Below, one piece after another: positions 47,593 through 61,903 of a stretch of DNA of 64,000 nucleotides. Numbering within the stretch: position 1 is the first letter of the stretch; every line of letters starts with the position of its first letter. The translations under genes were made by a program, and so were the position numbers. Source of the stretch: Promethearchaeota archaeon. Its GTDB lineage: Archaea > Asgardarchaeota > Lokiarchaeia > Sigyniarchaeales > SOKP01. The notes under the pieces were generated by a model. That model searched no databases. It was not told the DNA's origin and saw nothing but the letters and a program-made list of their open reading frames with translations. The DNA lies in contig JAFGGO010000114.1 of assembly GCA_016930515.1 (NCBI GenBank), positions 57,289 to 121,288 on the forward strand. The letters are read 5' to 3'.

Positions 47593-48078
47593 TTGAACAA
47601 AATCGAAATAAACAAAATGTCAGAAAAAGATATATGGACCATTAAGCTCGATTGGCTCAATATAATCCATTACTTGGGATTGGATTCCATAGACGAGATA
47701 CCTGAGTTAAAGAGGGAAAAGGCTATAAAGAAAATAACGAAACTCCACGGATCCGAAAAATTAATGGAACTCGATTCGAAAGAATTAGAGGAACTAGTCG
47801 CAAGCGAGCTATTAGATTCAATGAAAAAGGAGTTGTCCACGAAAGCTAAAAAACAGGAACAAGTAGAGCGGGACATCCAAAACAAATTCATTCCGTTTAA
47901 AAATGGCGGCATTATAAACATTAATCAGAAAGACCTCAAGGATCTTGACATTGACCTCAATGGAGACCCAACGGAAATCCTAAAAAAATTAGCAGAAAAG
48001 TTTTTTCGGCCAGGTAGCGACGATGACGACGACGACAACGATCGCTACGACGAAGACCACACTGGTTATTATATTTAA
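47593..48078 (+). CDS. Hypothetical protein with Asp-rich C-terminal tail
   Basis: Helical, charged ORF ending DDDDDDNDRYDEDHTGYYI. Confidence 0.65.
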   Translation: MNKIEINKMSEKDIWTIKLDWLNIIHYLGLDSIDEIPELKREKAIKKITKLHGSEKLMELDSKELEELVASELLDSMKKELSTKAKKQEQVERDIQNKFIPFKNGGIININQKDLKDLDIDLNGDPTEILKKLAEKFFRPGSDDDDDDNDRYDEDHTGYYI

Positions 48079-48134: not shown

Positions 48135-48440
48135 CTAAACGCTTAAAAACATCAAATTGTCTTTAGATTCAACGAGCTTGAGATCACGCAATGAAGACAA
48201 TTTTTCTACACCTTTTTCGTAGATTTCTACAAGATTTTCTTTAGAGATATTAGAACAGTGGAGAAGGAGTTGTCTATTTTTGATCAAATTTTTAAGAATA
48301 TTTTTTAACTCTCCTGAGTTAATTTCATTCGCGTTTGAAAGGTAAGAGGATAAATACGATCGAATCAATCTCCTGTCGAATTGCTTATTAAGCAACCTCA
48401 TTTCGTTAGACTCCATTAAAAATACATTTTCATAAATCAT
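48135..48440 (-). CDS. Hypothetical protein
   Basis: 101-aa ORF divergent from padR. Confidence 0.5.
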   Translation of the reverse strand: MIYENVFLMESNEMRLLNKQFDRRLIRSYLSSYLSNANEINSGELKNILKNLIKNRQLLLHCSNISKENLVEIYEKGVEKLSSLRDLKLVESKDNLMFLSV

Positions 48441-48588
48441 ATTTTATCCCTTATATTATGTATGTATTATTTAGGAAATTTGAATACAATGAATCATATC
48501 TTGTTTAAAAGTTATTTGACTCACTATTTATTAATACTTCAGAAATGATTAGATAAAAAATGGATAGCTTTAAATTTAACCAAGAATA

Positions 48589-48626
48589 TATTCTCATTTG
48601 AGAACATATAGTCTCACATGAGAATA
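48589..48626. promoter_or_regulatory. Tandem palindromic operator TCTCA-NN-TGAGA (two copies, 20-bp period) upstream of padR
   Basis: TTCTCA-TT-TGAGAA at 48591-48604 and GTCTCA-CA-TGAGAA at 48611-48624, downstream of a TTTAAA box (~48569). Confidence 0.75.
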
Positions 48627-48647
48627 CTGAAATAATTAAATTTCAAA

Positions 48648-49223
48648 ATGAATCAATCAGAATCATTTGAACTGGAGCACAAGGGCTTTATTATACTTGG
48701 ATTGTTAGCCGAAGAGCCAAGTGGGACGCATGCGTATAGCTTGAACAAGAAAATAGAAGAAAGAGGCATGCGCAATTGGACCGAGATTGGAAAATCGTCA
48801 ATTTATAGGATTGCAAGCGAATTAGAGGAGATAGGTCTCGTGGCGTCCTACGAAGAGGAATTCGACAACAGAGTTAGAAAAATGTACAAGATCACTGATT
48901 ATGGATATAATATTTTAAAAGACAAGGTATATGAGGTTCTAAGGACCTTTAACGGCAGGAACGACCCGGACTTTTATGTTGCGTTCTCTATGTTACCGTT
49001 TCTCACTAAAGAAGAAATAGAAGAAGCGATCCAGAATTCCATAGAAGCCATAAATTTAAACTTGGAAGAGTTAAGAGAATTGCTCGAGCAAAATTCTCAC
49101 TTAGGGCTGAATGTTAGAGGTTTATTCGTTCATCCCATAAAAATACTAGAAACCGACTTGGAGTTCTTAAAGGAAGTCTTAAGGGAGGTAAAGGAGGGAG
49201 GAGGTATTAAACTTGAGTCATGA
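48648..49223 (+). CDS. PadR family transcriptional regulator
   Basis: ILGLLAEEP..HAY.L...IEERGMRNWTEIGKSSIY...L...GLV...RKMYKITDYG. Confidence 0.9.
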   Translation: MNQSESFELEHKGFIILGLLAEEPSGTHAYSLNKKIEERGMRNWTEIGKSSIYRIASELEEIGLVASYEEEFDNRVRKMYKITDYGYNILKDKVYEVLRTFNGRNDPDFYVAFSMLPFLTKEEIEEAIQNSIEAINLNLEELRELLEQNSHLGLNVRGLFVHPIKILETDLEFLKEVLREVKEGGGIKLES

Positions 49224-50355
49224 ACATTTTATAGAAGGATTCAAACACCTAAAAGGTAAGCACTGCGAATCGTCGTCTATGAGAGATTTACTTGAATATA
49301 ATGAATTTCCAATGACAGAGGCCATGACTTTTGGTTTGGATGCCTCGTTAGGATTCCTTTATTTTAATCGAGCTAGCAATTCAGAGGACATGGATGATAT
49401 GCTGAACAATGCGCCGTTTTTTTTCGGAGGGAAACAAGGCACGATCGAAAGCACCTCGCTTGCGTGTCGCATTCTAGGCTTACTGGTTAGAAAACAATCG
49501 TTTACTAGTGCTGATAAAGCGTGGATCGAGGCAAAAAAAATGATTGACCAAGATATTCCCTTGATCCTCAAGGTCGATATGGCCTATTTGCCTTATTTAC
49601 AATTGGAAGAAAGAGAGATCCACTTTGGAGGGCACGCAATTACCTTGGCAGGATACGAGGAGAATAAAGGAATGGCCCTTGTAGGAGAAGCCGATTTTGA
49701 GGGATTTCAGGAAGTCCCAATCGAAAGCTTGAAAAAAAGCAGGAATTCTACCTACGGTCCCAATTTCATGCGACCAAACAATGCTCAATTCTCGATGAGT
49801 TCCCGTCCAGATGGAAAACGACCGCCTTTTGCAGCAGGAGTAAAACTTGCAATCCAACAGGTTGTATCAAACATGCTTCGCCCTTCTTTGAACAATTTTG
49901 GAGTTCAAGGCTTGAAATTATTAGCCAGATCAATTCCCGAATGGAAAGATGCACTTAAAGGACAAGTAATAGACTCGAAGGGTAATTCGATTTCTATCGC
50001 ACCATTAATGTTCGAATTCACACACGGATATATAGAGACATGGGGAACAGGAGGGGCTGCGTTCCGAAATCTTTACAAGGATTTTTTGATTGAGCTATTA
50101 AAATGCCCAGAGCTGAGAAAAGGAGCAGCAGCTTGGCAATCAAGCGACTTTGAAATCCTCCAAGAATGCATCTCGTTAACATCACTCTCTGCCAATAAAT
50201 GGACAAGCATTGCCAAGCAAATGTTAATTGCTTCAAAGGAAAAGGGTGAAGATTGTCTTGATCATTTTAACTTTAACGAGATACAGGATCTTATCATTTC
50301 GATTGCAACGATCGAGGAAGAATTGTTTCATAAATTGTCGAAAATTAAGATTTAA
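49213..50355 (+). CDS. BtrH N-terminal (C39/papain-like) + DUF4872 protein, copy 1
   Basis: GKHCESSS, D..YLPY, HFGGH.I.LAGY and IETWGTGGAAFR.LY..FL.E. Confidence 0.8.
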   Translation: MSHEHFIEGFKHLKGKHCESSSMRDLLEYNEFPMTEAMTFGLDASLGFLYFNRASNSEDMDDMLNNAPFFFGGKQGTIESTSLACRILGLLVRKQSFTSADKAWIEAKKMIDQDIPLILKVDMAYLPYLQLEEREIHFGGHAITLAGYEENKGMALVGEADFEGFQEVPIESLKKSRNSTYGPNFMRPNNAQFSMSSRPDGKRPPFAAGVKLAIQQVVSNMLRPSLNNFGVQGLKLLARSIPEWKDALKGQVIDSKGNSISIAPLMFEFTHGYIETWGTGGAAFRNLYKDFLIELLKCPELRKGAAAWQSSDFEILQECISLTSLSANKWTSIAKQMLIASKEKGEDCLDHFNFNEIQDLIISIATIEEELFHKLSKIKI

Positions 50356-50375
50356 GCGCAAAGAGGATAAGAATA

Positions 50376-51545
50376 ATGATTAGAATTGTAATAGACGATT
50401 TTAAGCATATAGCAGGGTCAAACTGCCAATTATCAAGTTTAAGAAAAATATTGACATACAACGATATCGAACTTTCAGAACCAATGCTTCTAGGAATGTC
50501 GTCGGGATTGGGATTTTTTTATTATTACATGAAAAGAATGCTTTTTCCGATGGTTTTAGGATTATCAGTGAAAAATACTGAAATGTTCGAGCGCGTCATG
50601 ACCCGCTTGGGTGGATCTATTCGAGTCACCGAGACTACATCTTTAAAAATTGCCCACGAAAATCTGATTCATGTACTTGAGAAAGGACAACCGGCAATCA
50701 CATTTGTTGACTTTGCCTACTTGCCTTTTTTCTTTGCGGAGGGCACTCCAATTCCAAACGAAGGTGCAGGGCATTATGGTGCCCATACATTCGTTACTTA
50801 TGGTATTGACGAGGAAAAGGACGAGGTATATATTTCAGATAGATATGCCCATCCTCATTTCATGAAATATAGCGAACTAAAGGAAGCGAGGGGGAGCAAG
50901 TTTGCACCCTTCCCCGCAAAAAATAAAATAGTTGAATTAGAATTACCAAAAAAAATAAGTGATTTGAATAGAGCCATTCCCGAAGGAATTAAGGAAAATA
51001 TCAATTTCATGTATAATCCTCCCATGAGCAACATGGGTTTATCAGGATTTCAGAAATGGAGGAAAATGCTTCCCACATGGGCCACCGATTTTGACGATAA
51101 TAGTTTATTGTTCGGACTCACGAGCGTGTTCATCTACATAGAAACTGGTGGAACGGGTGGCGCAATGTTCAGGATATTATATCGAGATTTTTTAAAAGAA
51201 GCGGGCGAAATGTTGAATAACAATGGTTTAAAAACAGCAGCGGAAAAGTTTGATGAAGTAACGCGAGTAATAAGGGATCTTGAATGTACATTATTACCAG
51301 ACGGTCTAGAAAACTTAGGAAAAATGCGAAAATTATTTTTAAAAAGTAATGAAATCACGGAAAAAGGAGAGAAAGACTATCAAAAACAATTGAGAAAGAT
51401 AAACGAACAAATGGAAACCATAATGGTTGGTGCTTTAGACGAAATTAGAGAATGGAAAAAATTAATACCTGAGATTGATAATTATATTAAAGACTGGGCA
51501 GATTTAGAGACAAAAGCCTGGGAAATGGTTAAATCATCAATTTAA
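50376..51545 (+). CDS. BtrH N-terminal (C39/papain-like) + DUF4872 protein, copy 2
   Basis: GSNCQLSS, DFAYLPF, HYGAH...YGID, YISD and IETGGTGGAMFR.LY.DFL.E. Confidence 0.8.
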   Translation: MIRIVIDDFKHIAGSNCQLSSLRKILTYNDIELSEPMLLGMSSGLGFFYYYMKRMLFPMVLGLSVKNTEMFERVMTRLGGSIRVTETTSLKIAHENLIHVLEKGQPAITFVDFAYLPFFFAEGTPIPNEGAGHYGAHTFVTYGIDEEKDEVYISDRYAHPHFMKYSELKEARGSKFAPFPAKNKIVELELPKKISDLNRAIPEGIKENINFMYNPPMSNMGLSGFQKWRKMLPTWATDFDDNSLLFGLTSVFIYIETGGTGGAMFRILYRDFLKEAGEMLNNNGLKTAAEKFDEVTRVIRDLECTLLPDGLENLGKMRKLFLKSNEITEKGEKDYQKQLRKINEQMETIMVGALDEIREWKKLIPEIDNYIKDWADLETKAWEMVKSSI

Positions 51546-51554
51546 AGCAAGATC

Positions 51555-52241
51555 GTGAATATGATGCCAATTGATTTCGTAAAAGAGTTGAATATAGACT
51601 CCCTCCGGGAAAGTTTTTTAAAATACGCTAGGAAAATCTTTGAATCGTTACCAAAAATAGAAGAACCTCGGATTTTAGATGTGGGGTGTGGTTCGGGAGC
51701 TGTTTCACTCGAACTTGCGAGATTAACAAAAGGCAGGATTACGAGTATTGATGTAGATCAATTGGTTTTGGAAAAATTTCTCTCAAAATTAGTGGAAACA
51801 GAATTTTCAAATCGCATTAACATCTTCAATCGTTCAATTTACAACACCGATTTTCAAGCAGAGAGTTTCGATATTGTATGGGAAGAAGGCATGTTGCACC
51901 TTGTAAATGCCAAAAATGCTCTCAAAGAGATTCAGAAAATCTTAAAAATTAATGGATTTTTCGTTGCTTTAGAAACTAAAGCGTGGTTTGAATCGAACTT
52001 GAAACGATTTTCTAATCACGGTTTTGATATTGTTGTAAAAATGGATTTACCAGATCAATGCTGGTTGGACGAATACTATCTGCCAATGGAAAGAAAGATT
52101 GAAAAGATAATATTAAATAACAAATTTTCAGAGGGGTTAAAAAAATTAAAACCTTTCGAAGATGAAATAAAAATGGTTAAAAAAAATCCTAAAAAGTTTG
52201 ATTGTGTTTATTATGTATTCAAAAAGATTAAGGTGGAATAA
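51555..52241 (+). CDS. Class I SAM-dependent methyltransferase
   Basis: ILDVGCGSG, SID, FQAESFDIVWEEG and LKINGFF. Confidence 0.9.
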   Translation: MNMMPIDFVKELNIDSLRESFLKYARKIFESLPKIEEPRILDVGCGSGAVSLELARLTKGRITSIDVDQLVLEKFLSKLVETEFSNRINIFNRSIYNTDFQAESFDIVWEEGMLHLVNAKNALKEIQKILKINGFFVALETKAWFESNLKRFSNHGFDIVVKMDLPDQCWLDEYYLPMERKIEKIILNNKFSEGLKKLKPFEDEIKMVKKNPKKFDCVYYVFKKIKVE

Positions 52242-52245
52242 GTAA

Positions 52246-54756
52246 ATGGATGAAATTCGAGTAAAAGGTGCTAGAATCCATAACTTGAAAAATATAAATG
52301 TGAACATGCCCAAAAGAAAAACGATTCTCATAACGGGCGTCTCAGGATCTGGAAAATCGAGCTTGGCGTTTGATATTATTTTTGACGAAGGCATGAATAG
52401 ATACCTTCAATCCATTGGTTTTCCCCCCAAGTTTGAGGACGACAAACCTTTTGATATCATAGAAGGGTTGAGTCCTACGGTAGCCGTTGAACAAAGAACA
52501 ACCAGGGTTTTTAATCCAAGATCGACAGTTGGTACGAGGTCGGGCGTTTATAGCTTGATCAGAATGTTATATGCAACAGAGGGCATACTCATTTGTCCCA
52601 TTTGCAAGATACCCGTAAATCAATCCAATCTAGAATGTGAATCTTGTGGAATGATCGTGGAGAGGAAGCAAATCAAGCATTTCTCGTTTAATGAGCCTTC
52701 TGGCATGTGCTTGAACTGTAAAGGGCGAGGATACGAGATGAACTTCACGGAAGAAGGTATTGTTAGGGATTTCAACCGAAATTTGATTGAGATTACTAAA
52801 GCGGGCTCTGGGTGTTTTGCTGACATGATCCGATTCGTAGAACAACTTCCAAATTTTTTCAATTTCGAAATTAACACACCCTATAAGGAGCTTCCGCAAG
52901 AAATCAAGGACTTATACCTGTACGGAAGCAAGGGTAAAAAATTCAAGTTTTATTGGGAGTCGAAGACGTTTCAAGGAGAACTGGAAAGAATTTTTGAAGG
53001 AGTCATCCCACACTTGAACCGAGCAATGATGGAAGGTAAAAGCGATTATAGAAGGAATAAAATCACCAAGGAATACATGTCAAAAAAGAAGTGCGAAGAG
53101 TGCGAAGGATATCGGATAAACGAGGAGGCAAGAGAGATAAAGATCGCCGGTAAGCATGTAGGGGAACTCGCAATGATGACTATCGAGGAATTAAAGAAAT
53201 TTCTTGAAATTCTTGATATCAAGAATGAAATAAAGACTCCTCAAGGTAGTGCAATTCTTGACAACGCAAAGCGCGGTTTGGATCGTATGATACAAGTTGG
53301 CTTGTCGTACTTGCATCTCAATAGATCCTTACCAACGCTTAGTGGTGGGGAACTACAAAGACTCACACTCATGACGCATCTCGACGGCAGTCTCGATTCT
53401 CTCATTTATGTTCTCGACGAGCCCAGCATGAGTTTGCACGAAAAAGAAAAGGACTCCTTAATCGAAATTCTTCAACAATTAAAAGAATTAGGCAACACGG
53501 TCATCATTGTCGAGCATGACAAGCGCTTTATGGAACTTGCAGACGAAATTATTGAAATTGGACCTGGAGCAGGTATTGATGGAGGAACAATAGTTTATCA
53601 AGGGACATTAGAGGGAATAAAAAAGATTAAAGGATCTCATACGGGTCAATACCTATCTGGAAGCGTTTCCCTTTCAGAAAAAAGTAGTGCAAATCAAAAA
53701 ATAATAAGCAATACAACGAACTTTTTAACGATAAAAAACGCATCTACGAATAATCTAAAAGACCTCACCGCCAGCATTCCTCTTGGATTTATGGTAGGAA
53801 TTGCGGGAGTCTCTGGTTCGGGAAAAAGTTCTCTGATTTTAGACACCCTCGTTCCACTATTAAAACCATTATTCAAAAAAGGAGTAAAAAAATCGAGAAA
53901 AAAATCAGAAGAAGAAAACGGTGAAGAAGAAGAAAACGGTGAAGAATTACTGGAGTATTCTGGACGGGTGGAAGGTTGGGAATATTTAGACGGCGTGGTT
54001 ATCGTCAACCAAAAACCAATTTCACGGGTTCGCACCTCGACGCCTTGTTCCTTCATAGGAATATGGGATAAGATAAGGAACTTATTTTCTAAGACTGTTG
54101 AGGCCAAGAAAAGAAAATTTTCATCAGGTCACTTCTCTTACAATTCCGAGAACGGTCGCTGTCCCGCTTGTAAAGGATTGGGTTATCAGGACCTGCAAGT
54201 ATCGTTTCTTACGAGTTTTCAAATTCCATGCAAGGAATGCAAGGGATCAAAATACAAATCAGAGATATTAGAAATTAAATACAAGGGTTATACGATTGCG
54301 GATGTCTTGAACATGACTGTAAAAGAAGCGGCCGAATTGTTTTGCGATCAAGAAAGCGTGTCAAAAGTGCTCAAGGTTCTAAACGAAATCGGAATGGGAT
54401 ACATCGAGCTTGGCCAACCAGCACCCAGTTTAAGCGGCGGAGAAGCCCAGAGAGTGAAATTGGCAAAGGAATTGGGTAAAATGAGAAAAGGCAAGCTTCT
54501 TTACGTGTTAGACGAACCCACGGTGGGTTTATCTTTCTTTGACGCTGTAAAATTGGTGGAATTACTCGACAAACTCGTTCAAGAAGGTAACACCGTCATC
54601 ATAATCGAACACGACCCTGAAATACTTTCTCATTGTGATTATATCCTAGAATTAGGTCCAGAAGGCGGACCTAAGGGTGGAACGATCATTGCTGAGGGAA
54701 CGCCACAAGAAATCAAATCAAATAAAAATTCCATAACGGGACTATATCTAAAATAA
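52246..54756 (+). CDS. UvrA-like ABC ATPase, class II (UvrA2/DrrC-type; no UvrB-binding domain)
   Basis: GARIHNLKN, two GVSGSGKSS, LSGGELQR/LSGGEAQR and LDEP motifs. Only a short spacer between CPIC and CESC. Confidence 0.88.
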   Translation: MDEIRVKGARIHNLKNINVNMPKRKTILITGVSGSGKSSLAFDIIFDEGMNRYLQSIGFPPKFEDDKPFDIIEGLSPTVAVEQRTTRVFNPRSTVGTRSGVYSLIRMLYATEGILICPICKIPVNQSNLECESCGMIVERKQIKHFSFNEPSGMCLNCKGRGYEMNFTEEGIVRDFNRNLIEITKAGSGCFADMIRFVEQLPNFFNFEINTPYKELPQEIKDLYLYGSKGKKFKFYWESKTFQGELERIFEGVIPHLNRAMMEGKSDYRRNKITKEYMSKKKCEECEGYRINEEAREIKIAGKHVGELAMMTIEELKKFLEILDIKNEIKTPQGSAILDNAKRGLDRMIQVGLSYLHLNRSLPTLSGGELQRLTLMTHLDGSLDSLIYVLDEPSMSLHEKEKDSLIEILQQLKELGNTVIIVEHDKRFMELADEIIEIGPGAGIDGGTIVYQGTLEGIKKIKGSHTGQYLSGSVSLSEKSSANQKIISNTTNFLTIKNASTNNLKDLTASIPLGFMVGIAGVSGSGKSSLILDTLVPLLKPLFKKGVKKSRKKSEEENGEEEENGEELLEYSGRVEGWEYLDGVVIVNQKPISRVRTSTPCSFIGIWDKIRNLFSKTVEAKKRKFSSGHFSYNSENGRCPACKGLGYQDLQVSFLTSFQIPCKECKGSKYKSEILEIKYKGYTIADVLNMTVKEAAELFCDQESVSKVLKVLNEIGMGYIELGQPAPSLSGGEAQRVKLAKELGKMRKGKLLYVLDEPTVGLSFFDAVKLVELLDKLVQEGNTVIIIEHDPEILSHCDYILELGPEGGPKGGTIIAEGTPQEIKSNKNSITGLYLK
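53908..53943 (+). repeat. Perfect 18-bp tandem duplication encoding EEENGE x2
   Basis: GAAGAAGAAAACGGTGAA repeated twice within a charged loop. Confidence 0.8.
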
Positions 54757-54772
54757 ATTTTGTTGATGAGTC

Positions 54773-57700
54773 TTGGTAATAAAAATTAAAGGCGCACGAG
54801 AACACAACCTAAAAAATATTAATATTGATATTGAAGACGGACTTACAGTAGTTACAGGAGTCTCCGGTTCGGGAAAAACATCATTAATATTTGATACCCT
54901 TTATAAAGAAGCTCACCGTCGTTTTTTAGAAGCATTCTCCGTTAATAAAGACGAGATGAAGCTTAATCCAGCAAAAGTAAATTCAATTTCAGGTATGGGA
55001 ACCACGATTGCCCTCGGACAGAACCTATTGAACAGAAATCCTAATTCCACCCTCGCTTCGGCTACGGGCCTTATTCCACTTTTCAAGATCTTGTTTTCTA
55101 GGTTTGGAACTAGAAAATGCCACAAATGTGGTTCATTAATTTCAGTCTTAAAAGAAGAAGAAATAGTTTCTCGAATCGAAGATCTCAAGAATGATGAAAA
55201 ACTTCAAATTTCTGCCATTCTTATGAAAAAAGCAAAAGGAAGCCATAGAACTTTACTTGCTCTTTTGGAAAAAGAATTTGGTTCAGAAGCGGTAATTATA
55301 GATTCACATCCCTTGGTTATGGATTTAGATCCAAATAAAGCTCACGATATTCAAGTAATTATCGGCAACATTGATAACACTACACAAATCGTCGAGATTA
55401 GGGCCCTTGTTAGAATGGCGTTAATGATGGGCTCAAGGGCTTTGGAGATTAAAGGAGATAATACATTATTAGTTATTTCTCTTATACAATCATGTGTGGA
55501 ATGTGGGACATGGTTTGATAAGCTAGAGCCGTATTATTTTAACAAGAATTGCCCTCATTGTAAGGGAAAAGGATGCAATGAATGCAACAATTCAGGTTAT
55601 CACCCGTTCGTTCAGGGGACCACATGGAAGGGTTTTTTATTTCAAGATATCTTGAAAATATCTGTAGGAGAACTTTCTTTCCTATTTTCAAAAGAATTTT
55701 CAGCCAATTCAAGATTATTAAAAGAAATAGAGAATAGAGTAAATATGTTAAAGTCAGTTGGTTTAGATTATTTGACTTTAGATAGAATCACGCCAACTCT
55801 TTCGAGAGGGGAGTCTCAGAGAGTTCGATTGGCAATGGCCTTACGAAGCAATTTATACGATGTAACGCATATACTTGACGAGCCTACCATTGGTCAACAT
55901 CCTACCGATATTTCTCGATTGATGTCAATGATTTCCAACCTCCCTGGAAGGATTATTTATATAGAACATGATCGACAGGCTGCCATTCATGCCGATAATG
56001 CCATTGATATGGGTCCTGGAGCAGGATATAAGGGAGGAGAGGTTGTTTTTGCAGGAAAGATAGAGGATCTTTGGAAAGCAAATACACCAACAGGAAAATA
56101 TTTTAGTTTAAGAGAGCATGTATTATGCCCAAAAAAGCGCGATCCACCTGTACAATTTATGACAATCAAGTCTGCTTACAAGCACAACCTTAAAAACATT
56201 GATGTGAGAATTCCGATCAATAGACTCACGGTAATTACAGGCGTTTCAGGATCGGGTAAAAGCACTTTAATCAAGGAAGTGCTTTATAATTCCTTAAAAA
56301 ATAGAAAACCAAGCGGTTGTAAAAGCATAGAAGGACCTTTGTTGAAAGCTGTCTTGGTCAATCAAGAACCGATTGGAAAAAATCCGCGATCTAACCCTGC
56401 CACATACACAAAACTCTCAGATATTATACGGAAGTTGTATGCTAAGGAATCTGGATTGAAATCGACTTACTTTTCCTTTAATACGCCTAATGGTGCTTGC
56501 GATACTTGTAACGGAATGGGTGCACTTGAAATTAAAATGCGGTATTTATCTTCAGTGTGGATCGAATGTTCTGACTGCGAAGGCAAGCGATTTTCAGAGG
56601 AAGTTCTCTCGGAGAAAGTAAAATTTGGAGAAAAATATTACAACATTTCAGAATTTTACGATTTACCTATCTCTACCGTTTTAAGGTTGTTGAATGAGGA
56701 AACTCGCGTGACAGAAAAGGAACTCGCTCCCGCAAGGCAGATGCTAGAAGCAATGACCGAAATTGGTTTGCATTATCTCTCATTGGGACAACCATCACCT
56801 ACTCTTTCGGGAGGAGAAGCGCAAAGATTAAAATTGTCAAAGTATCTCGGGAAGAGTACTATAAAAAATCAATTAATGATTTTGGATGAACCATCTACTG
56901 GTTTACATCCTCGAGATCTCTCAGGCTTGTTATCGGTCCTTGATAAATTGTTGAAAGCAGGAGCAACCATAGTTGTCGTTGAGCATAATTCGGATTTTAT
57001 TAGGGCAGCAGATTGGGTCGTGGATCTTGGACCTAGATCGGGACCTGTAGGTGGAGAGGTCGTGTACGAGGGATCATACGACGGATTATCAAGGGTGAAG
57101 CATTCCTTAACTGCGAGTGCTTTAGGAGAAGAATATTTTTCAAAACCACATCCCAGTAAAAAAGGCAAAATTTTACCAAGAAAACTTGAAATTTCAATTC
57201 AAAAAGCTTCTATGCATAATTTAAAGAACATAAGTGTGAACATACCAAAAAATAAGTTCACTGTAGTTACAGGCGTTTCAGGTTCGGGAAAATCAAGCTT
57301 GATAGTCGATACTTTAGAAGCAGAAGCCCGTCGTAGGTACTTAGAAACATTATCAATGTACGAAAGACAGGGTTCCAAGGAAACTAACGAATCCCAAGTC
57401 GAGGAGATAATTGGACTTGGAGTTACTGCCTTAATTACTCCTGAAAAGTTGGTTCGTGGATGGATTTACAATATTCGTTATACTATCGGAAGGGTAACTG
57501 ACATTATTTTGCATTTAGCAACAATTTTTTCACATGAAGGTAAACAGAAGTGTCCAAAATGTGGTGAATGGATGGAAAAAAAACAGACTTATTCTTGTAA
57601 TAAATGTGATATATCACTTCCGATTCCAAAGCCTCGTCATTTTATCTCATCTAACTATTCCGCTGCGTGTTTAAAGTGCCACGGAGTAGGAACAATGCAG

Positions 57701-59641
57701 GTTCCAAATCATAGCAAACTCATAATTTCCCCCGAAAAGCCGATCTGTGGGGGGGCAATGCATTCCCTGGGTTTTTTCCCAAAAGGATACTTGTGCAAAC
57801 CATATAATATGGGATACTATATTATACAAGCTCTTGCGGATCGATACGGATTTGATCAATTTCAAACACCATGGAAAGACTTAACAAACCGAGCTAAGAA
57901 CGCTTTCTTGCATGGAGATGAGGAACCGTTGAAAGTGCAATTTGAAAACAAGAAGGGCCAAAAATCGGAGAAAATAATAAAATATATGGGTTTTTATAAA
58001 CAATGGCTAAGAGATTGGGATGTAGGAGGAACATATACGGATACGATCCCGTGTGAAAAATGTCTTGGGACAAAACTTCGACCGCAGTATTTAGAAATTT
58101 CGTTTCTTAATCACAATATACACCAAATGTGCGAACTTACCTTAAGTAATTTGTACGAACTCTTAAAAAATCACGCCATAAATGACTTCAAACACGATTT
58201 TGTGAAAAACAGTTATAAAATTATACTTAGAAAATTAGAGTTTTTAAACAGAACGGGACTTGGTTATATTAATTTAAACAGAGTTGCGGAAAGCTTATCT
58301 GCCGGCGAAGCGCAGCGCGTGAAATTGGCAAGCCTCTTGGGAAGCGAGCTTTCCGCTCTCACGATAATAGTCGACGAACCCACGAGAGGATTACATCCAA
58401 CCGAGCTTCAAGCATTGATTAAGGCCTTGTTAGACATACGGGACAAGGGGAATACAATCATTGCCATCGAGCATGATTTTTCGTTTATCAAAAGCGCAGA
58501 TCACATTATAGAAATGGGACCAGGAGGAGGGGCAAAGGGTGGCTATATCGTTGCAATAGGGGCACCCTCAGAAATATCTAAGAAAAAAACTGCCACTTCT
58601 GATTGGTTAAGTGGTAAAAAAAGCTTTAATATTAATAAAACGCGTCGAAAACCAGAACGATGGTTGAAGATTTACGGAGCAAGAGCTAATAATTTAAAAG
58701 GAGACCTCGTTGAAATACCACTCGGTCTTATTACCGGAGTATGTGGCATATCAGGTTCAGGCAAAAGCACTTTATTAATTGATACACTAGCAAGGGCACT
58801 TGTACCAATAACACACACTACATCCGTTTCTCGAGAACCCACCAAACCAGGAGTACACGAAAAAATAGAGGGTTCTTTGGCGAATACCATTGTTGTTGAT
58901 CAAAATAAGGCCAAATTGGGAAATCCAATTAAATTTCTGGATTTGGAACGGTATATTTTAAAGATCTTTGCCAATACGGAAGACGCAAAATTATTAGGTT
59001 TGGGTATTAAGGAACTCGCCCAAAAATGTTCATCATGTAAAGGACGAGGTTATTTAAAGACTGATTTAAGCTTTTTACCAGCAATGATAGAAGAATGCGA
59101 AACTTGTAAAGGATCTGGTTATTTGGCCGAAATTTCACAAATTCGCTATGAGGGATATTCATTGCCAGAAGTGAATAATTTTACATTTAACGAGGCTTAT
59201 ATTTTATTCCAAGGACACGACAACATAACTTCGAGATTAAAAATCGTTTTAGATGTTCAACTGGGATATTTAAAATTAAATCAACCTGGTAGGACGCTCT
59301 CGGGAGGCGAGGCTCAAAGGCTCAAGATAGTAAGAGAACTCGCAAAGAATTCGAATAAAAAAACATTATATATTCTTGACGAACCAACAATAGGGCAACA
59401 TCTTGATGAAGTGTCTTCTTTAACTAAAATTCTTCAAAATCTGGTCAATAAAGGACACACGGTTATCGTTATCGAGCACCATCCTCACCTTTTGGCTTGT
59501 TGTGATTGGTTAATTGAATTAGGTCCAGGTGCTGGCCCCAATGGTGGTCACATTATTGCAAAAGGGACTCCCGAGACCATTGCCCAGGGGCCAACGCCAA
59601 CGGCGAAATATATTAGAGAGGTGTTAGAGGAAAAAAAATGA
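54773..59641 (+). CDS. Tandem (double) UvrA-like protein with four ABC ATPase domains
   Basis: Four G[VI]SGSGK[ST] Walker A motifs, signatures LSRGE, LSGGE, LSAGE and LSGGE, four DEP Walker B motifs, four EH H-loops and multiple CxxC pairs. Confidence 0.9.
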   Translation: MVIKIKGAREHNLKNINIDIEDGLTVVTGVSGSGKTSLIFDTLYKEAHRRFLEAFSVNKDEMKLNPAKVNSISGMGTTIALGQNLLNRNPNSTLASATGLIPLFKILFSRFGTRKCHKCGSLISVLKEEEIVSRIEDLKNDEKLQISAILMKKAKGSHRTLLALLEKEFGSEAVIIDSHPLVMDLDPNKAHDIQVIIGNIDNTTQIVEIRALVRMALMMGSRALEIKGDNTLLVISLIQSCVECGTWFDKLEPYYFNKNCPHCKGKGCNECNNSGYHPFVQGTTWKGFLFQDILKISVGELSFLFSKEFSANSRLLKEIENRVNMLKSVGLDYLTLDRITPTLSRGESQRVRLAMALRSNLYDVTHILDEPTIGQHPTDISRLMSMISNLPGRIIYIEHDRQAAIHADNAIDMGPGAGYKGGEVVFAGKIEDLWKANTPTGKYFSLREHVLCPKKRDPPVQFMTIKSAYKHNLKNIDVRIPINRLTVITGVSGSGKSTLIKEVLYNSLKNRKPSGCKSIEGPLLKAVLVNQEPIGKNPRSNPATYTKLSDIIRKLYAKESGLKSTYFSFNTPNGACDTCNGMGALEIKMRYLSSVWIECSDCEGKRFSEEVLSEKVKFGEKYYNISEFYDLPISTVLRLLNEETRVTEKELAPARQMLEAMTEIGLHYLSLGQPSPTLSGGEAQRLKLSKYLGKSTIKNQLMILDEPSTGLHPRDLSGLLSVLDKLLKAGATIVVVEHNSDFIRAADWVVDLGPRSGPVGGEVVYEGSYDGLSRVKHSLTASALGEEYFSKPHPSKKGKILPRKLEISIQKASMHNLKNISVNIPKNKFTVVTGVSGSGKSSLIVDTLEAEARRRYLETLSMYERQGSKETNESQVEEIIGLGVTALITPEKLVRGWIYNIRYTIGRVTDIILHLATIFSHEGKQKCPKCGEWMEKKQTYSCNKCDISLPIPKPRHFISSNYSAACLKCHGVGTMQVPNHSKLIISPEKPICGGAMHSLGFFPKGYLCKPYNMGYYIIQALADRYGFDQFQTPWKDLTNRAKNAFLHGDEEPLKVQFENKKGQKSEKIIKYMGFYKQWLRDWDVGGTYTDTIPCEKCLGTKLRPQYLEISFLNHNIHQMCELTLSNLYELLKNHAINDFKHDFVKNSYKIILRKLEFLNRTGLGYINLNRVAESLSAGEAQRVKLASLLGSELSALTIIVDEPTRGLHPTELQALIKALLDIRDKGNTIIAIEHDFSFIKSADHIIEMGPGGGAKGGYIVAIGAPSEISKKKTATSDWLSGKKSFNINKTRRKPERWLKIYGARANNLKGDLVEIPLGLITGVCGISGSGKSTLLIDTLARALVPITHTTSVSREPTKPGVHEKIEGSLANTIVVDQNKAKLGNPIKFLDLERYILKIFANTEDAKLLGLGIKELAQKCSSCKGRGYLKTDLSFLPAMIEECETCKGSGYLAEISQIRYEGYSLPEVNNFTFNEAYILFQGHDNITSRLKIVLDVQLGYLKLNQPGRTLSGGEAQRLKIVRELAKNSNKKTLYILDEPTIGQHLDEVSSLTKILQNLVNKGHTVIVIEHHPHLLACCDWLIELGPGAGPNGGHIIAKGTPETIAQGPTPTAKYIREVLEEKK

Positions 59642-60672
59642 TTTGGATTCCATTACTACTTTCAGATCCCTCTCCTTGCTTGAGAGTGATGGTTCTTAAA
59701 AATTTACTAGATAGAGATGAAAAAGATTCGGAAGTAAAAGAATTATTAAATTTCAGGAACGAAGACCCTTTAATAATTAATCTTTTACAGTTACAAGCGT
59801 CAAATGGTGGCTGGGATACTTTCGGCTCGAAAATAATTTCTTCAGGAGATTCGATTTATACAACATCCTTGGCACTTCAGAGACTAGGATATTTAGGGTT
59901 TGGATCAGAAAATCCTTCTGTTCAAAAAGCAGCAGAATTTCTGTTCTCAAATCAGCAAAAAGATGGATCTTGGCCTATGCCCGGAAAGAAGCAGAGAGAA
60001 GACGAAGAATTAGGGTATCAAAAAATGCCTGTTCAAACTGCCATCCCTTTATTGGGTTTAGTAATGTGCGGCTACGCAAAAGATAAGCGAGCTGAAAAAG
60101 CGTTCAATTGGCTAAACGAGTTGCGCTTAGAAGACGGTGCCTGGCCCGTGGGTATTTCAGCTGGAAATTACGGCGGTATTGCGGGCTACAGAAGAATCTC
60201 ACATTCGCGTTGGGGATGTCGTTCAAATACTTTAGCTGTTTTGAGTTGTTTGGCTTATCATCCTCAAAAACGAAAAAGTAATATCGCCAGGCAAGCGCTC
60301 GACTTGTTATTGGGAACAGATATGAAGCAACGATCAAGCCTAGGGTTTTTCGTGGCACGGATTCTTGGACTAGAAAGGTCGATTGGACGAATTACTTTCA
60401 TGGCTCGATTTGATATTGCCCATTTATTGAATTTATGCTGGAGGATCGGAGCAAGTATTGACGACGAAAGAGTATCTGAATTTGTAGAATTCATTAAAGG
60501 CGAACAAGGGCCTTTTGGAATGTGGGATTACTCTTCCCAACCTAAAGCAACGCGGTGGATCACTTACGATTTGTTAAATTCGTTAAAACAAATTGATATT
60601 AACAAGGAGTGGTTTAGTCTTGAACCGAGAACACCCTTTCAATCTTATGATACGAGAAAAAGGATTTATTAG
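59638..60672 (+). CDS. Prenyltransferase/squalene-cyclase-like alpha/alpha toroid (QW-repeat) protein
   Basis: QASNGGW, QQKDGSW, RLEDGAW and QGPFGMW repeats; ATGA overlap with the upstream gene. Confidence 0.7.
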   Translation: MIWIPLLLSDPSPCLRVMVLKNLLDRDEKDSEVKELLNFRNEDPLIINLLQLQASNGGWDTFGSKIISSGDSIYTTSLALQRLGYLGFGSENPSVQKAAEFLFSNQQKDGSWPMPGKKQREDEELGYQKMPVQTAIPLLGLVMCGYAKDKRAEKAFNWLNELRLEDGAWPVGISAGNYGGIAGYRRISHSRWGCRSNTLAVLSCLAYHPQKRKSNIARQALDLLLGTDMKQRSSLGFFVARILGLERSIGRITFMARFDIAHLLNLCWRIGASIDDERVSEFVEFIKGEQGPFGMWDYSSQPKATRWITYDLLNSLKQIDINKEWFSLEPRTPFQSYDTRKRIY

Positions 60673-60715: not shown

Positions 60716-61903
60716 TTAATTTCGCATCTCAATAAATTTTCCTGAAGTCATTAACCTACACGGTTTGAAGTAATTGATATCATTTTCAATGGAAAAATCA
60801 CTTAATAACTCAGACCATTTTTCATAGTTATGTTTTCCAGGAATGAAGGGCCCTTGGGTACCAACACCGATTTTCATTACATTTTCAATAATGGAATAAT
60901 TCAGAACAATTTTTTCCTCTAATAATTTACATCCCTCGTTCAATTGGATAGCTAGCATCAATTCAGGATCTAATAATCCAGATTTTTTTGTCTTGTCTAT
61001 CAACGGTTTTCCGTTTTCTCGATATTCATAAAACCCTCTCCCTGTTTTTTTTCCATAATATCCTTTAGACACTAAATAAGTTAGTAATTTTCTGGGAGTA
61101 AAATCAACTGAGACTCTTTTCTCAAAACTTTTCAATGATTTATACGCAGTGTCTAATCCTAAATAGTCGCATAATTCAAATGGTCCGACATTCGTGATAT
61201 CTCGCGTATCAGCGTCTAATTGTTCGATTGGAATTCCCTTTTCTACCGCTTTATCAGCTATTAATGTAAAATATAAGGTTCCTGGTATTAACAGGCGATT
61301 TGCTATGAAACCAGGTGTATCCTTTTCAAGTGGAGCAACATACATCGAACCTTTTTGAGCGGGTATAGTCCTGCAAAAATTCAATATCTTATGAAATGCT
61401 TCATCACTAGTTTTTTTTCCTTTCATTATTTCGATACAACTTCGAGTAAAAGGAGGTAAAAAATAATGCGTACCAATAGTGTTTTCTGGTTTTCCAGAGG
61501 CTTCTCCTAACTCAGTTATTGTAAATGTAGAAGTATTAGAGGCAATTATAGTTTCCTTAGAGATCCGATCCCCAATATTTCTAAGAAGGTTTGTTTTTAG
61601 TTCAATATCTTCAGGAATCGCCTCAGTTATCAAATCTGATTCAAAAATAGGATCCTTCAATTGTTCGGATAAAATTAATTTATTAAAAATTCGTTTTGCC
61701 TCTCCATTTTGACGGAAAAAATTATTTGTTGCTAATTTTTCAATATAAGTTTTTAGTCTTTCTTTGGCATTTAATAAAGCTTTTTTTGATATATCTACAA
61801 GATATACATTATCTACTTTAGAGAGCATGAATACTTGAGCGATTCCAATGCCCATTGGCCCCGCACCAATAACCGAAATATTTTTGAAGTAATTATCTGT
61901 CAT
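60716..61903 (-). CDS. 3-hydroxyacyl-CoA dehydrogenase
   Basis: GAGPMGIGIA, EAIPE, ASNTS, GTHYF, PGFIANR, GPFELCDYLGLD and GKKTGRGFY. Confidence 0.92.
   Translation of the reverse strand: MTDNYFKNISVIGAGPMGIGIAQVFMLSKVDNVYLVDISKKALLNAKERLKTYIEKLATNNFFRQNGEAKRIFNKLILSEQLKDPIFESDLITEAIPEDIELKTNLLRNIGDRISKETIIASNTSTFTITELGEASGKPENTIGTHYFLPPFTRSCIEIMKGKKTSDEAFHKILNFCRTIPAQKGSMYVAPLEKDTPGFIANRLLIPGTLYFTLIADKAVEKGIPIEQLDADTRDITNVGPFELCDYLGLDTAYKSLKSFEKRVSVDFTPRKLLTYLVSKGYYGKKTGRGFYEYRENGKPLIDKTKKSGLLDPELMLAIQLNEGCKLLEEKIVLNYSIIENVMKIGVGTQGPFIPGKHNYEKWSELLSDFSIENDINYFKPCRLMTSGKFIEMRN

Follow-up and report, generated by a model that had tools for sequence, protein, structure and literature searches.

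The question raised by the locus described here is what an archaeon that already possesses the canonical genes of nucleotide excision repair (NER) may do with further genes of the UvrA type, when these stand in one operon with a PadR-family regulator, two BtrH-like proteins, a methyltransferase and a toroid protein. The locus lies in a 64-kb stretch of Promethearchaeota archaeon (contig JAFGGO010000114.1), called the window hereafter, and the source genome is a 4.0-Mb Asgard metagenome-assembled genome (MAG), 94% complete. In this genome a canonical uvrA, with an open reading frame (ORF) of 955 amino acids (aa) and a full-length match of 1308 bits, adjoins uvrB (983 bits) on one contig (C40), and uvrC is located on a separate contig (C70). 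Neither uvrB nor uvrC is present on the contig of the operon, so that an earlier observation, made in a sequence-only reading of the window by a model, that both are missing from the window holds, the two genes being found only on other contigs. Because the canonical uvrA-uvrB pair and uvrC sit elsewhere in the genome, the uvrA genes of the operon are extra copies, and not the only ones that this organism has.

The operon occupies positions 48648-60672, where seven plus-strand ORFs run in one direction with operon-like spacing, and their Pfam assignments match the gene list given by the sequence-only reading. The last two genes, encoding a double UvrA (dUvrA) and a toroid protein named here Tor, carry the main finding. 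The observations concern the gene content, its conservation, the domain architecture of the proteins and the presence of dUvrA-Tor in records in which uvrB and uvrC were not found; they point to a pair shared with bacteria, around which one Asgard clade seems to have assembled a larger operon that may serve in protection against DNA-binding or DNA-damaging compounds.

The double UvrA and its toroid partner

The dUvrA gene (54773..59641, plus strand) encodes 1622 aa with four ATPase modules, as assigned by motifs and alignment, and the gene before it (52246..54756, plus strand) encodes a UvrA paralogue of 836 aa, assigned by motifs, by alignment to the canonical UvrA and by the TIGR00630 model. 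When both were aligned to the genome's own canonical UvrA, each proved to contain tandem ATP-binding cassette (ABC) ATPase modules, in which the Walker A, Walker B, signature and H-loop motifs are all intact, together with the cysteine modules Zn1-Zn3. The halves of dUvrA, about 35% identical to each other, have lost complementary domains. The N-terminal half is without the insertion domain, because its Zn2 CxxC pairs (CPHC260 and CNEC268) are adjacent, and it keeps a homologous UvrB-binding-like domain (residues ~117-240, positions 55121..55492, plus strand; PF17760, UvrA_inter, 30.2 bits against a cut-off of 23.3), which aligns to residues 130-290 of the UvrA in 9gxk with an E-value of 5e-10. 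The C-terminal half keeps the insertion domain (966-1094) and is without the UvrB-binding domain, since its Zn1 CxxC pairs (CPKC927 and CNKC942), like those of the 836-aa UvrA, are only 10-12 residues apart. The four Walker A lysines, the Walker B D-E pairs, the H-loop histidines and the cysteines of the zinc modules are invariant in 42 dUvrA orthologues, and therefore all four ATPase sites look live; the complementary domain loss, likewise invariant in them, is a fixed feature of the dUvrA family. With identities of 32-37%, the 836-aa UvrA, the two halves of dUvrA and the canonical UvrA stand about equally far from one another.

The gene of Tor (59638..60672, plus strand; 344 aa, SQHop_cyclase_C, PF13243, 52 bits) overlaps the end of dUvrA by 4 nt. 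An AlphaFold model of Tor from a 63-row alignment, which replaced a discarded earlier model from seven sequences that was poor (predicted local distance difference test, pLDDT, of 62), has a pLDDT of 89.6 and a predicted template-modelling score of 0.91 and consists of one alpha/alpha toroid domain, with three QW-like repeats in the sequence. The best structural matches are squalene-hopene cyclase 1gsz, with a Z of 15.6 and a root-mean-square deviation (rmsd) of 4.0 for 235 residues, and complement C5, whose thioester domain in 3kls gives a Z of 15.0 and an rmsd of 4.3 for 252 residues; both barely exceed many other toroids, with Foldseek TM-scores not higher than 0.5. The D.DD (DxDD) motif is absent from the window Tor and was found anywhere in just two of 42 orthologues, so that Tor is not a class II terpene cyclase. 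The family itself is compact: among 1.8 billion representative proteins searched, 66 matches, many of them fragments, fall below 1e-30, and beyond them the scores drop to generic toroid and cyclase proteins. Between Tor orthologues from two domains of life the identity is 50-72%, and their many invariant residues include a run between His189 and Thr198, with the signature stretch HSRWGCRS at 189-196, as well as His208, Asp259, Asp276 and Arg278. Two distant relatives (22-26% identity), whose contigs measure 1.5 and 2.8 kb, are uninformative; in at least one case no UvrA stands directly upstream. Further toroid genes were seen at a few loci: a 338-aa paralogue stands between the BtrH-like and methyltransferase genes at L029:872-1888 (+), and a 308-aa Tor-like ORF follows Tor at L062:1222-2145 and L093:11178-12101.

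The complex of the two proteins was predicted for dUvrA residues 108-252 with full-length Tor, from user-supplied alignments of 42 rows each. The UvrB-binding-like domain and Tor gave an interaction score from aligned errors (ipSAE) of 0.73 (0.75, 0.73 and 0.72 in the separate runs), against 0.01 for the best of three controls, with a between-run contact agreement of at least 76% and a partner pLDDT of at least 77. In calibration, 58 of 80 solved complexes attained that mark and so did two of 110 mismatched pairs, counts which are only rough here because user-made alignments were used. As Tor is unrelated to UvrB, the score is not a recall of the solved UvrA-UvrB complex. The predicted interface comprises residues 150-161, 164-165, 168, 187, 193, 217-222 and 238-240 of dUvrA and residues 4-13, 20, 24, 31-42, 293-295 and 302-303 of Tor; it includes the few invariant residues of the dUvrA domain (Gly156, Ser157 and Leu165) as well as the invariant Leu8 and Glu32 of Tor, and beyond it the sequence of the domain is poorly conserved. 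The prediction thus supports a binding of Tor by the UvrB-binding-like domain of the N-terminal half. The second conserved patch of Tor (His189, Trp192, Cys194, Arg195, His208, Asp259, Asp276 and Arg278) lies outside the predicted docking residues and would therefore be free for another function. The sequence-only reading had named binding among the ways in which a small molecule is inactivated; by the model, the QW-repeat protein looks more like a docked partner of dUvrA than like a free drug binder.

Two Bathyarchaeota chromosome records, CP070683.1 and CP070784.1, carry dUvrA-Tor; these are MAG records whose completeness is not stated, and searches in them gave neither a uvrB match below an E-value of 1e-5 nor a uvrC above the cut-off; in three other module-bearing genomes, uvrB was found. 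Subject to the completeness of such MAGs, the pair would not require UvrB or UvrC. This bears on the explanation that dUvrA is a specialised front end of NER, which loads the host UvrB at part of the lesions and is assisted or regulated by Tor. The N-terminal domain is indeed a true homologue of the UvrB-binding domain, and UvrB and UvrC are encoded in this genome and in several other carriers of the module; however, the module is also found in the Bathyarchaeota records just mentioned, the prediction that the domain binds Tor is a high-confidence one, and the little that is conserved in the domain lies at the predicted Tor interface, so that the front-end role is regarded as quite improbable.

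In CP070784.1 (G003), a 616-aa C-terminal piece of dUvrA stands beside Tor (locus L091). Pieces were located at C1:1154854-1156401 and C1:1692191-1693018, with an N-terminal UvrA-like fragment about 540 kb away, and the gene may be decaying or rearranged. CP070683.1 (G004) has, besides dUvrA-Tor, a UvrA of class I length at C1:133955-136774 (974-aa frame, 1152 bits), uvrB and uvrC not being found in this record.

Distribution of the pair and growth of the operon

Relatives of Tor were collected by a scan of one genome per species, which gave 171, and gene neighbourhoods were taken from the best 80, all of them from uncultured organisms. These 80 loci span Asgard archaea, Bathyarchaeia, Chloroflexota, Aminicenantes, Zixibacteria and others, and dUvrA stands directly 5' of Tor in all but four of them, the exceptions being three Tor genes at contig ends and one lone Tor (L067). 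Full-length dUvrA homologues of the same length, with 50-69% identity, are present in Asgard archaea, Bathyarchaeota, Chloroflexota and Aminicenantes, and in the six neighbourhoods of such homologues, of which three are from Asgard archaea, one is from Bathyarchaeota and two are from bacteria, Tor always comes next after dUvrA. The overlap of the dUvrA stop with the Tor start by 4 nt recurs in 34 of the 41 complete orthologous pairs, which suggests that Tor is translationally coupled to dUvrA. Clustering of all flanking ORFs gave no further neighbour common across phyla. To judge from these neighbourhoods, dUvrA-Tor is a stand-alone unit that is shared with bacteria and is not specific to archaea. 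The lone Tor belongs to a Chloroflexia genome (G005, contig C5), in which a dUvrA split into several frames lies at C4:83338-88236.

In Asgard loci only, the pair is accompanied, in the same order as in the window, by padR, BtrH-like, DUF3795, methyltransferase, 836-aa UvrA and VOC genes. A DUF3795 gene follows the first BtrH-like gene in 17 related loci, and a VOC gene (Glyoxalase/bleomycin-resistance, 137 aa) stands directly after Tor in 18 Asgard loci, e.g., at L040:11104-11517 (+); both are absent from the window, where a convergent gene follows Tor instead. In a FastTree phylogeny of dUvrA, all 23 sequences from extended operons form one clade with an SH-like support of 100, and the bare pairs of Heimdall- and Hermod-labelled archaea group with Bathyarchaeia and bacteria. 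The add-on genes therefore joined dUvrA-Tor once, in one Asgard clade. The co-occurrence of the genes in other genomes, on which the sequence-only reading had staked its proposal, was thus observed, with the same order in about 25 Asgard loci. Its view of the operon as one module needs correction, as there are two modules, of which the dUvrA-Tor pair is common to bacteria. A sample of 301 Asgard genomes gave Tor in 72, and in 16 of the 68 from the window's own family; such patchiness marks it as an accessory trait.

A patchy occurrence with horizontal transfer across domains would also suit an anti-phage or anti-plasmid defence, an option that the sequence-only reading had kept, in which foreign DNA is detected by the ABC-type ATPases and the effector is either Tor or the BtrH-like proteins. 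ABC ATPases are sensors in several defence systems, which gives this idea a precedent, some relatives carry HNH fusions, and the PADLOC models mad3 and mad8 match the UvrA modules of the operon. These matches are generic, though: the Toprim-like nuclease partner of MAD3 and the kinase are absent here, and five of the seven proteins have either no PADLOC match or a generic one only. A Pfam scan of the 125 immediate neighbours of bare pairs gave 157 families with no enrichment in defence or mobile-element genes and with two transposases; searches of viral contigs and of plasmids gave no Tor, the plasmids yielding only matches of the squalene-hopene cyclase type, and control by PadR is atypical for defence systems. 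With nothing specific in its support, the defence role is considered quite improbable.

The Asgard operon and its possible function

The seven genes are preceded by a TATA-like box TTTAAATTTAA (48569..48579, plus strand), read directly from the sequence and presumably the promoter element, just 3' of which lies a tandem operator with two TCTCA-N2-TGAGA sites 20 bp apart (48592..48603 and 48612..48623). By motif count, exactly two such sites are present in the window, where 0.08 are expected and none of 100 shuffles gave two; six are present in the 4-Mb genome, the window pair being the sole tandem and the four others single. Thus, the tandem palindromic operator noticed in the sequence-only reading is confirmed and turns out to be the only arrangement of its kind in the genome. 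Four relatives were read, and three of them, L017, L018 and L033, have near-identical or related palindromes 5' of padR; in L017 the operator is preceded by TTTAAATA, which resembles the TATA-like box. The tandem palindromes are presumed to be the binding sites of PadR over the expected start of transcription. The padR gene (48648..49223, plus strand; 191 aa, PF03551, 45 bits against a cut-off of 27) is the leading gene of the cluster in the relatives too. The ORFs upstream of it, 47593-48078 (+) with 161 aa and 48135-48440 (-) with 101 aa, have no Pfam match, and the genes 5' of padR are not alike in the neighbourhoods of two relatives (L017 and L018).

The junctions between the genes of the operon are, in gene order, -11, +20, +9, +4, +16 and -4 nt, and the operon is closed by a convergent 3-hydroxyacyl-CoA dehydrogenase gene at 60716. 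The first value holds for the TTG start of BtrH-like protein 1 at 49213, which gives 380 aa, the length of most orthologues, and an overlap of 11 nt with padR; if the ATG at 49279 is taken as the start, as in the database form of 358 aa, the junction becomes +55 nt.

The 836-aa UvrA lacks the UvrB-binding domain and keeps the insertion domain and both ATPase modules. Its Zn1 pairs (CPIC117 and CESC131) are nearly adjacent with both CxxC retained, and its 823-bit match to TIGR00630 covers only profile positions 1-128 and 250-923. Among solved structures it scores 652 bits with class I UvrA, 500 with the UvrA2 of D. radiodurans (2vf7) and 427 with Ecm16 (7sh1). The assignment to the DrrC/UvrA2 type made in the sequence-only reading is not upheld by these data, since the Zn1 cysteines are kept and the scores are closer to class I; in its domain loss the protein resembles the drug-resistance UvrAs, and by sequence it would stand outside their class.

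The two proteins with BtrH_N and DUF4872 domains (protein 1, 49213..50355, plus strand, 380 aa, with 98.9 bits for BtrH_N and 79.8 bits for DUF4872; protein 2, 50376..51545, plus strand, 389 aa, by Pfam) are diverged paralogues, about 27% identical, the second being present in only part of the related loci. Both paralogue groups have an invariant Cys18, His137 and His141 and a conserved DUF4872 motif, E-T-x-G-T-G-G, which fits a pair of active papain/C39-like cysteine hydrolases or acyltransferases. The domains named in the sequence-only reading are present, and its label of peptidases is not established, given that BtrH itself, from butirosin synthesis, is an acyltransferase. The DarH model (NF053550) gave 103 and 118 bits with the two proteins against a cut-off of 300, and BtrH-like protein 1, the one of the two that was searched, had no sequence match to a solved structure in the PDB. 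Some orthologues of BtrH-like protein 1 bear an N-terminal HNH domain, as at L018:3733-5160 (+) (PF01844, 37 bits), and this fusion was found in four of the 120 best clusters of BtrH-like homologues (P0277, P0318, P0354 and P0359), the window copy being without HNH; the fusions hint that the BtrH-like enzymes may act at or near nucleic acid. The class I S-adenosylmethionine-dependent methyltransferase (51555..52241, plus strand; 228 aa, Methyltransf_25/11, 58-59 bits) has only below-threshold NCBIfam matches, to the UbiE and CpaM types, and its best solved relatives are uncharacterised methyltransferases, so that a generic small-molecule type is the assignment favoured by sequence.

The HNH fusions give reason to consider, instead of resistance to a free drug, a dedicated repair of one kind of lesion, e.g., a bulky adduct or a crosslink of DNA to a protein or peptide. 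The lesion would here be found by the UvrA paralogues, its peptide or acyl part trimmed by the BtrH-like enzymes, and the remainder processed by Tor, a scheme with which the invariant papain-type Cys/His set of both BtrH groups agrees, as do the delivery of Tor to DNA by dUvrA that the model suggests and the Fpg/Nei glycosylase genes that neighbour two bare pairs. However, PadR and the VOC neighbour point to a small-molecule trigger, the methyltransferase is of the small-molecule type, the window operon contains no nuclease, helicase or ligase with which a repair could be finished, and the distribution is that of an accessory and not of a housekeeping function. Lesion repair is accordingly judged unlikely, though the HNH fusions speak for it.

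That BtrH is a biosynthetic acyltransferase, and that the nearest NCBIfam model of its two relatives here is DarH, albeit below its cut-off, raises also the idea of a small biosynthetic cluster with self-resistance, in which the BtrH-like proteins, the methyltransferase and the toroid make a DNA-targeting metabolite and the UvrAs protect the producer, UvrA-like self-resistance genes being typical of the gene clusters of DNA intercalators (PMC9328131). But no scaffold-forming enzyme, carrier protein or exporter is encoded in or beside the operon, Tor is without the DxDD cyclase motif, and across phyla Tor is tied to dUvrA and not to BtrH or methyltransferase genes, all of which makes a biosynthetic role very improbable.

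The reading preferred here, to which an even chance is given, is that the operon confers inducible protection, independent of UvrB and UvrC, against DNA-binding or DNA-damaging compounds. It is favoured because of the control by PadR and the two extra UvrA-type sensors without a UvrB interface or with a re-purposed one, because of the precedent of Ecm16 and the VOC neighbour in relatives, and because of the plausible small-molecule enzymes and the patchy, horizontally spread distribution. The xenobiotic-inducible, UvrB-independent protection proposed in the sequence-only reading is hence still the best account, given the VOC gene in 18 loci and the pair in records without a found uvrB or uvrC, with the amendment that the operon consists of two modules.

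The inducer, the substrate and each enzymatic step are what we infer for such a protection, as follows. PadR would repress the operon and a toxin would probably induce it. In the first module, which may be old and horizontally spread, dUvrA would in effect be a UvrA "dimer", hard-wired and asymmetric, whose four ATPase sites are live; the UvrB-binding-like domain of its N-terminal half would dock Tor instead of, or besides, UvrB, and the insertion domain of its C-terminal half would contact DNA. It would search out DNA that is distorted or has a ligand bound and deliver Tor to the site, and Tor, via its second conserved patch, might bind the ligand or lesion, extract it or process it chemically. 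The second module, with the 836-aa UvrA, one or two BtrH-like enzymes and the methyltransferase, and with DUF3795 and VOC proteins in relatives, would displace and inactivate the compound. The known partners of UvrA are UvrB and Mfd. A bolder proposal, put forward only tentatively, is that dUvrA-Tor may be a hitherto unrecognised UvrB/UvrC-independent machine of DNA surveillance. A single-chain UvrA pseudo-dimer of permanent asymmetry would use the one UvrB-binding domain left to it to carry a toroid enzyme to distorted DNA, and this enzyme, in place of a helicase-nuclease pair, would resolve the adduct or bound ligand there by extraction or chemical reversal; this would be a third output of UvrA beside UvrB loading and Mfd coupling, around which one Asgard lineage may have built a genotoxin-response operon.

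Several points weigh against the protective function. The operon contains neither an exporter nor a known drug-modifying enzyme, and it is linked to no known compound, inducer or phenotype. The fold of Tor is generic and its matches only moderate, so that a function is unreadable from them; the interface with dUvrA is a model from user-supplied alignments and not a measurement. By the PDB bit scores, the 836-aa UvrA is nearer to class I UvrA than to class IIa of drug resistance. The HNH fusions of the BtrH-like proteins fit an action on nucleic acid at least as well as an action on a free drug. The bare dUvrA-Tor pairs have no detoxifying neighbours, and thus the core module need not act on a drug. 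Finally, the absence of uvrB and uvrC is read from MAG records of unstated completeness, of which one (G003) has a fragmented dUvrA.

UvrA is among the best-studied sensors of DNA damage, and a toroid partner would add a new class of effector to its family; the dUvrA fusion is furthermore a model, provided by nature in a single chain, of the asymmetric states that UvrA has been proposed to adopt when it recognises damage. If the operon is truly a genotoxin-response system, sediment Asgard archaea would face DNA-targeting natural products, and testable functions would become available for four families that are little understood, namely DUF4872/BtrH_N, DUF3795, the toroid family and the short UvrAs outside class IIa. 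As dUvrA-Tor consists of two genes only, it is tractable for expression in a laboratory host.

Comparison with known systems

No description of the dUvrA-Tor pair or of the seven-gene operon was found in the literature, and the comparison is therefore made with systems that share single components. The defence system MADS comprises eight genes, including the ATPase-nuclease modules MAD3/MAD4 and MAD7/MAD8 and kinases, with MAD3 a P-loop ATPase and its partner MAD4 a Toprim-like nuclease (PMC13662399). It was rejected as a relative, the PADLOC matches to mad2, mad3 and mad8 being generic methyltransferase and ABC-ATPase similarity, and the strong mad3 and mad8 scores arising where such ABC-ATPase similarity adds up across four to six modules. 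The listed Pfam matches of the seven proteins (the best 25 for the longest protein) include no Toprim, nuclease or kinase domain.

The BtrH-like pair shares with BtrH and DarH the BtrH_N and DUF4872 domains and the invariant Cys/His set, but there are no carrier-protein or aminoglycoside genes near the operon and some orthologues are fused to HNH. The alpha/alpha toroid of Tor is common to the thioester-containing domains of complement and alpha-2-macroglobulin and, together with the QW-like repeats, to the class II terpene cyclases, such as squalene-hopene cyclase, drimenyl diphosphate synthase and MstE. Unlike the latter, Tor is a single domain and not a beta-gamma didomain, lacks DxDD, and has its own residue signature and a gene linkage to a DNA-binding ATPase.

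The double length and the four ATPase modules of dUvrA recall the chlamydial double-length UvrA (NF001885/PRK00635, a model of 1809 positions). However, dUvrA scores 850 bits with this model against a cut-off of 3054, and therefore does not belong to the chlamydial family. Class I UvrA (TIGR00630/NF001503; 2r6f, 3pih, 3uwx and 9gxk) is matched by the operon UvrAs with 823 and 1308 bits against the TIGR00630 cut-off of 729.8, and both the UvrB-binding-domain homologue of the N-terminal half of dUvrA and the insertion domain of its C-terminal half are class I features. The UvrA units of the operon nevertheless fall below the stricter cut-off of NF001503; the UvrB-binding and insertion domains never occur together in one half of dUvrA, and the former is missing from the 836-aa UvrA. 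In dUvrA, two diverged units with complementary domain loss are joined in one chain, and the gene is paired with that of a toroid and not with uvrB.

Class IIa UvrA proteins (Ecm16, DrrC, TrsM; UvrA2) are without the first zinc finger, and Ecm16 provides an NER-independent, ATPase-dependent resistance to a DNA bisintercalator (PMC9328131). The 836-aa UvrA keeps the first zinc finger and sits outside any biosynthetic cluster, and no toroid partner or fused double form has been described for class IIa. What the operon shares with this class is that the 836-aa UvrA and the C-terminal half of dUvrA are without a UvrB-binding domain, and that its UvrAs are extra copies beside a canonical UvrA. Drug protection of the Ecm16 type is thus suggested, by analogy, as the best functional parallel to the UvrAs of this operon.

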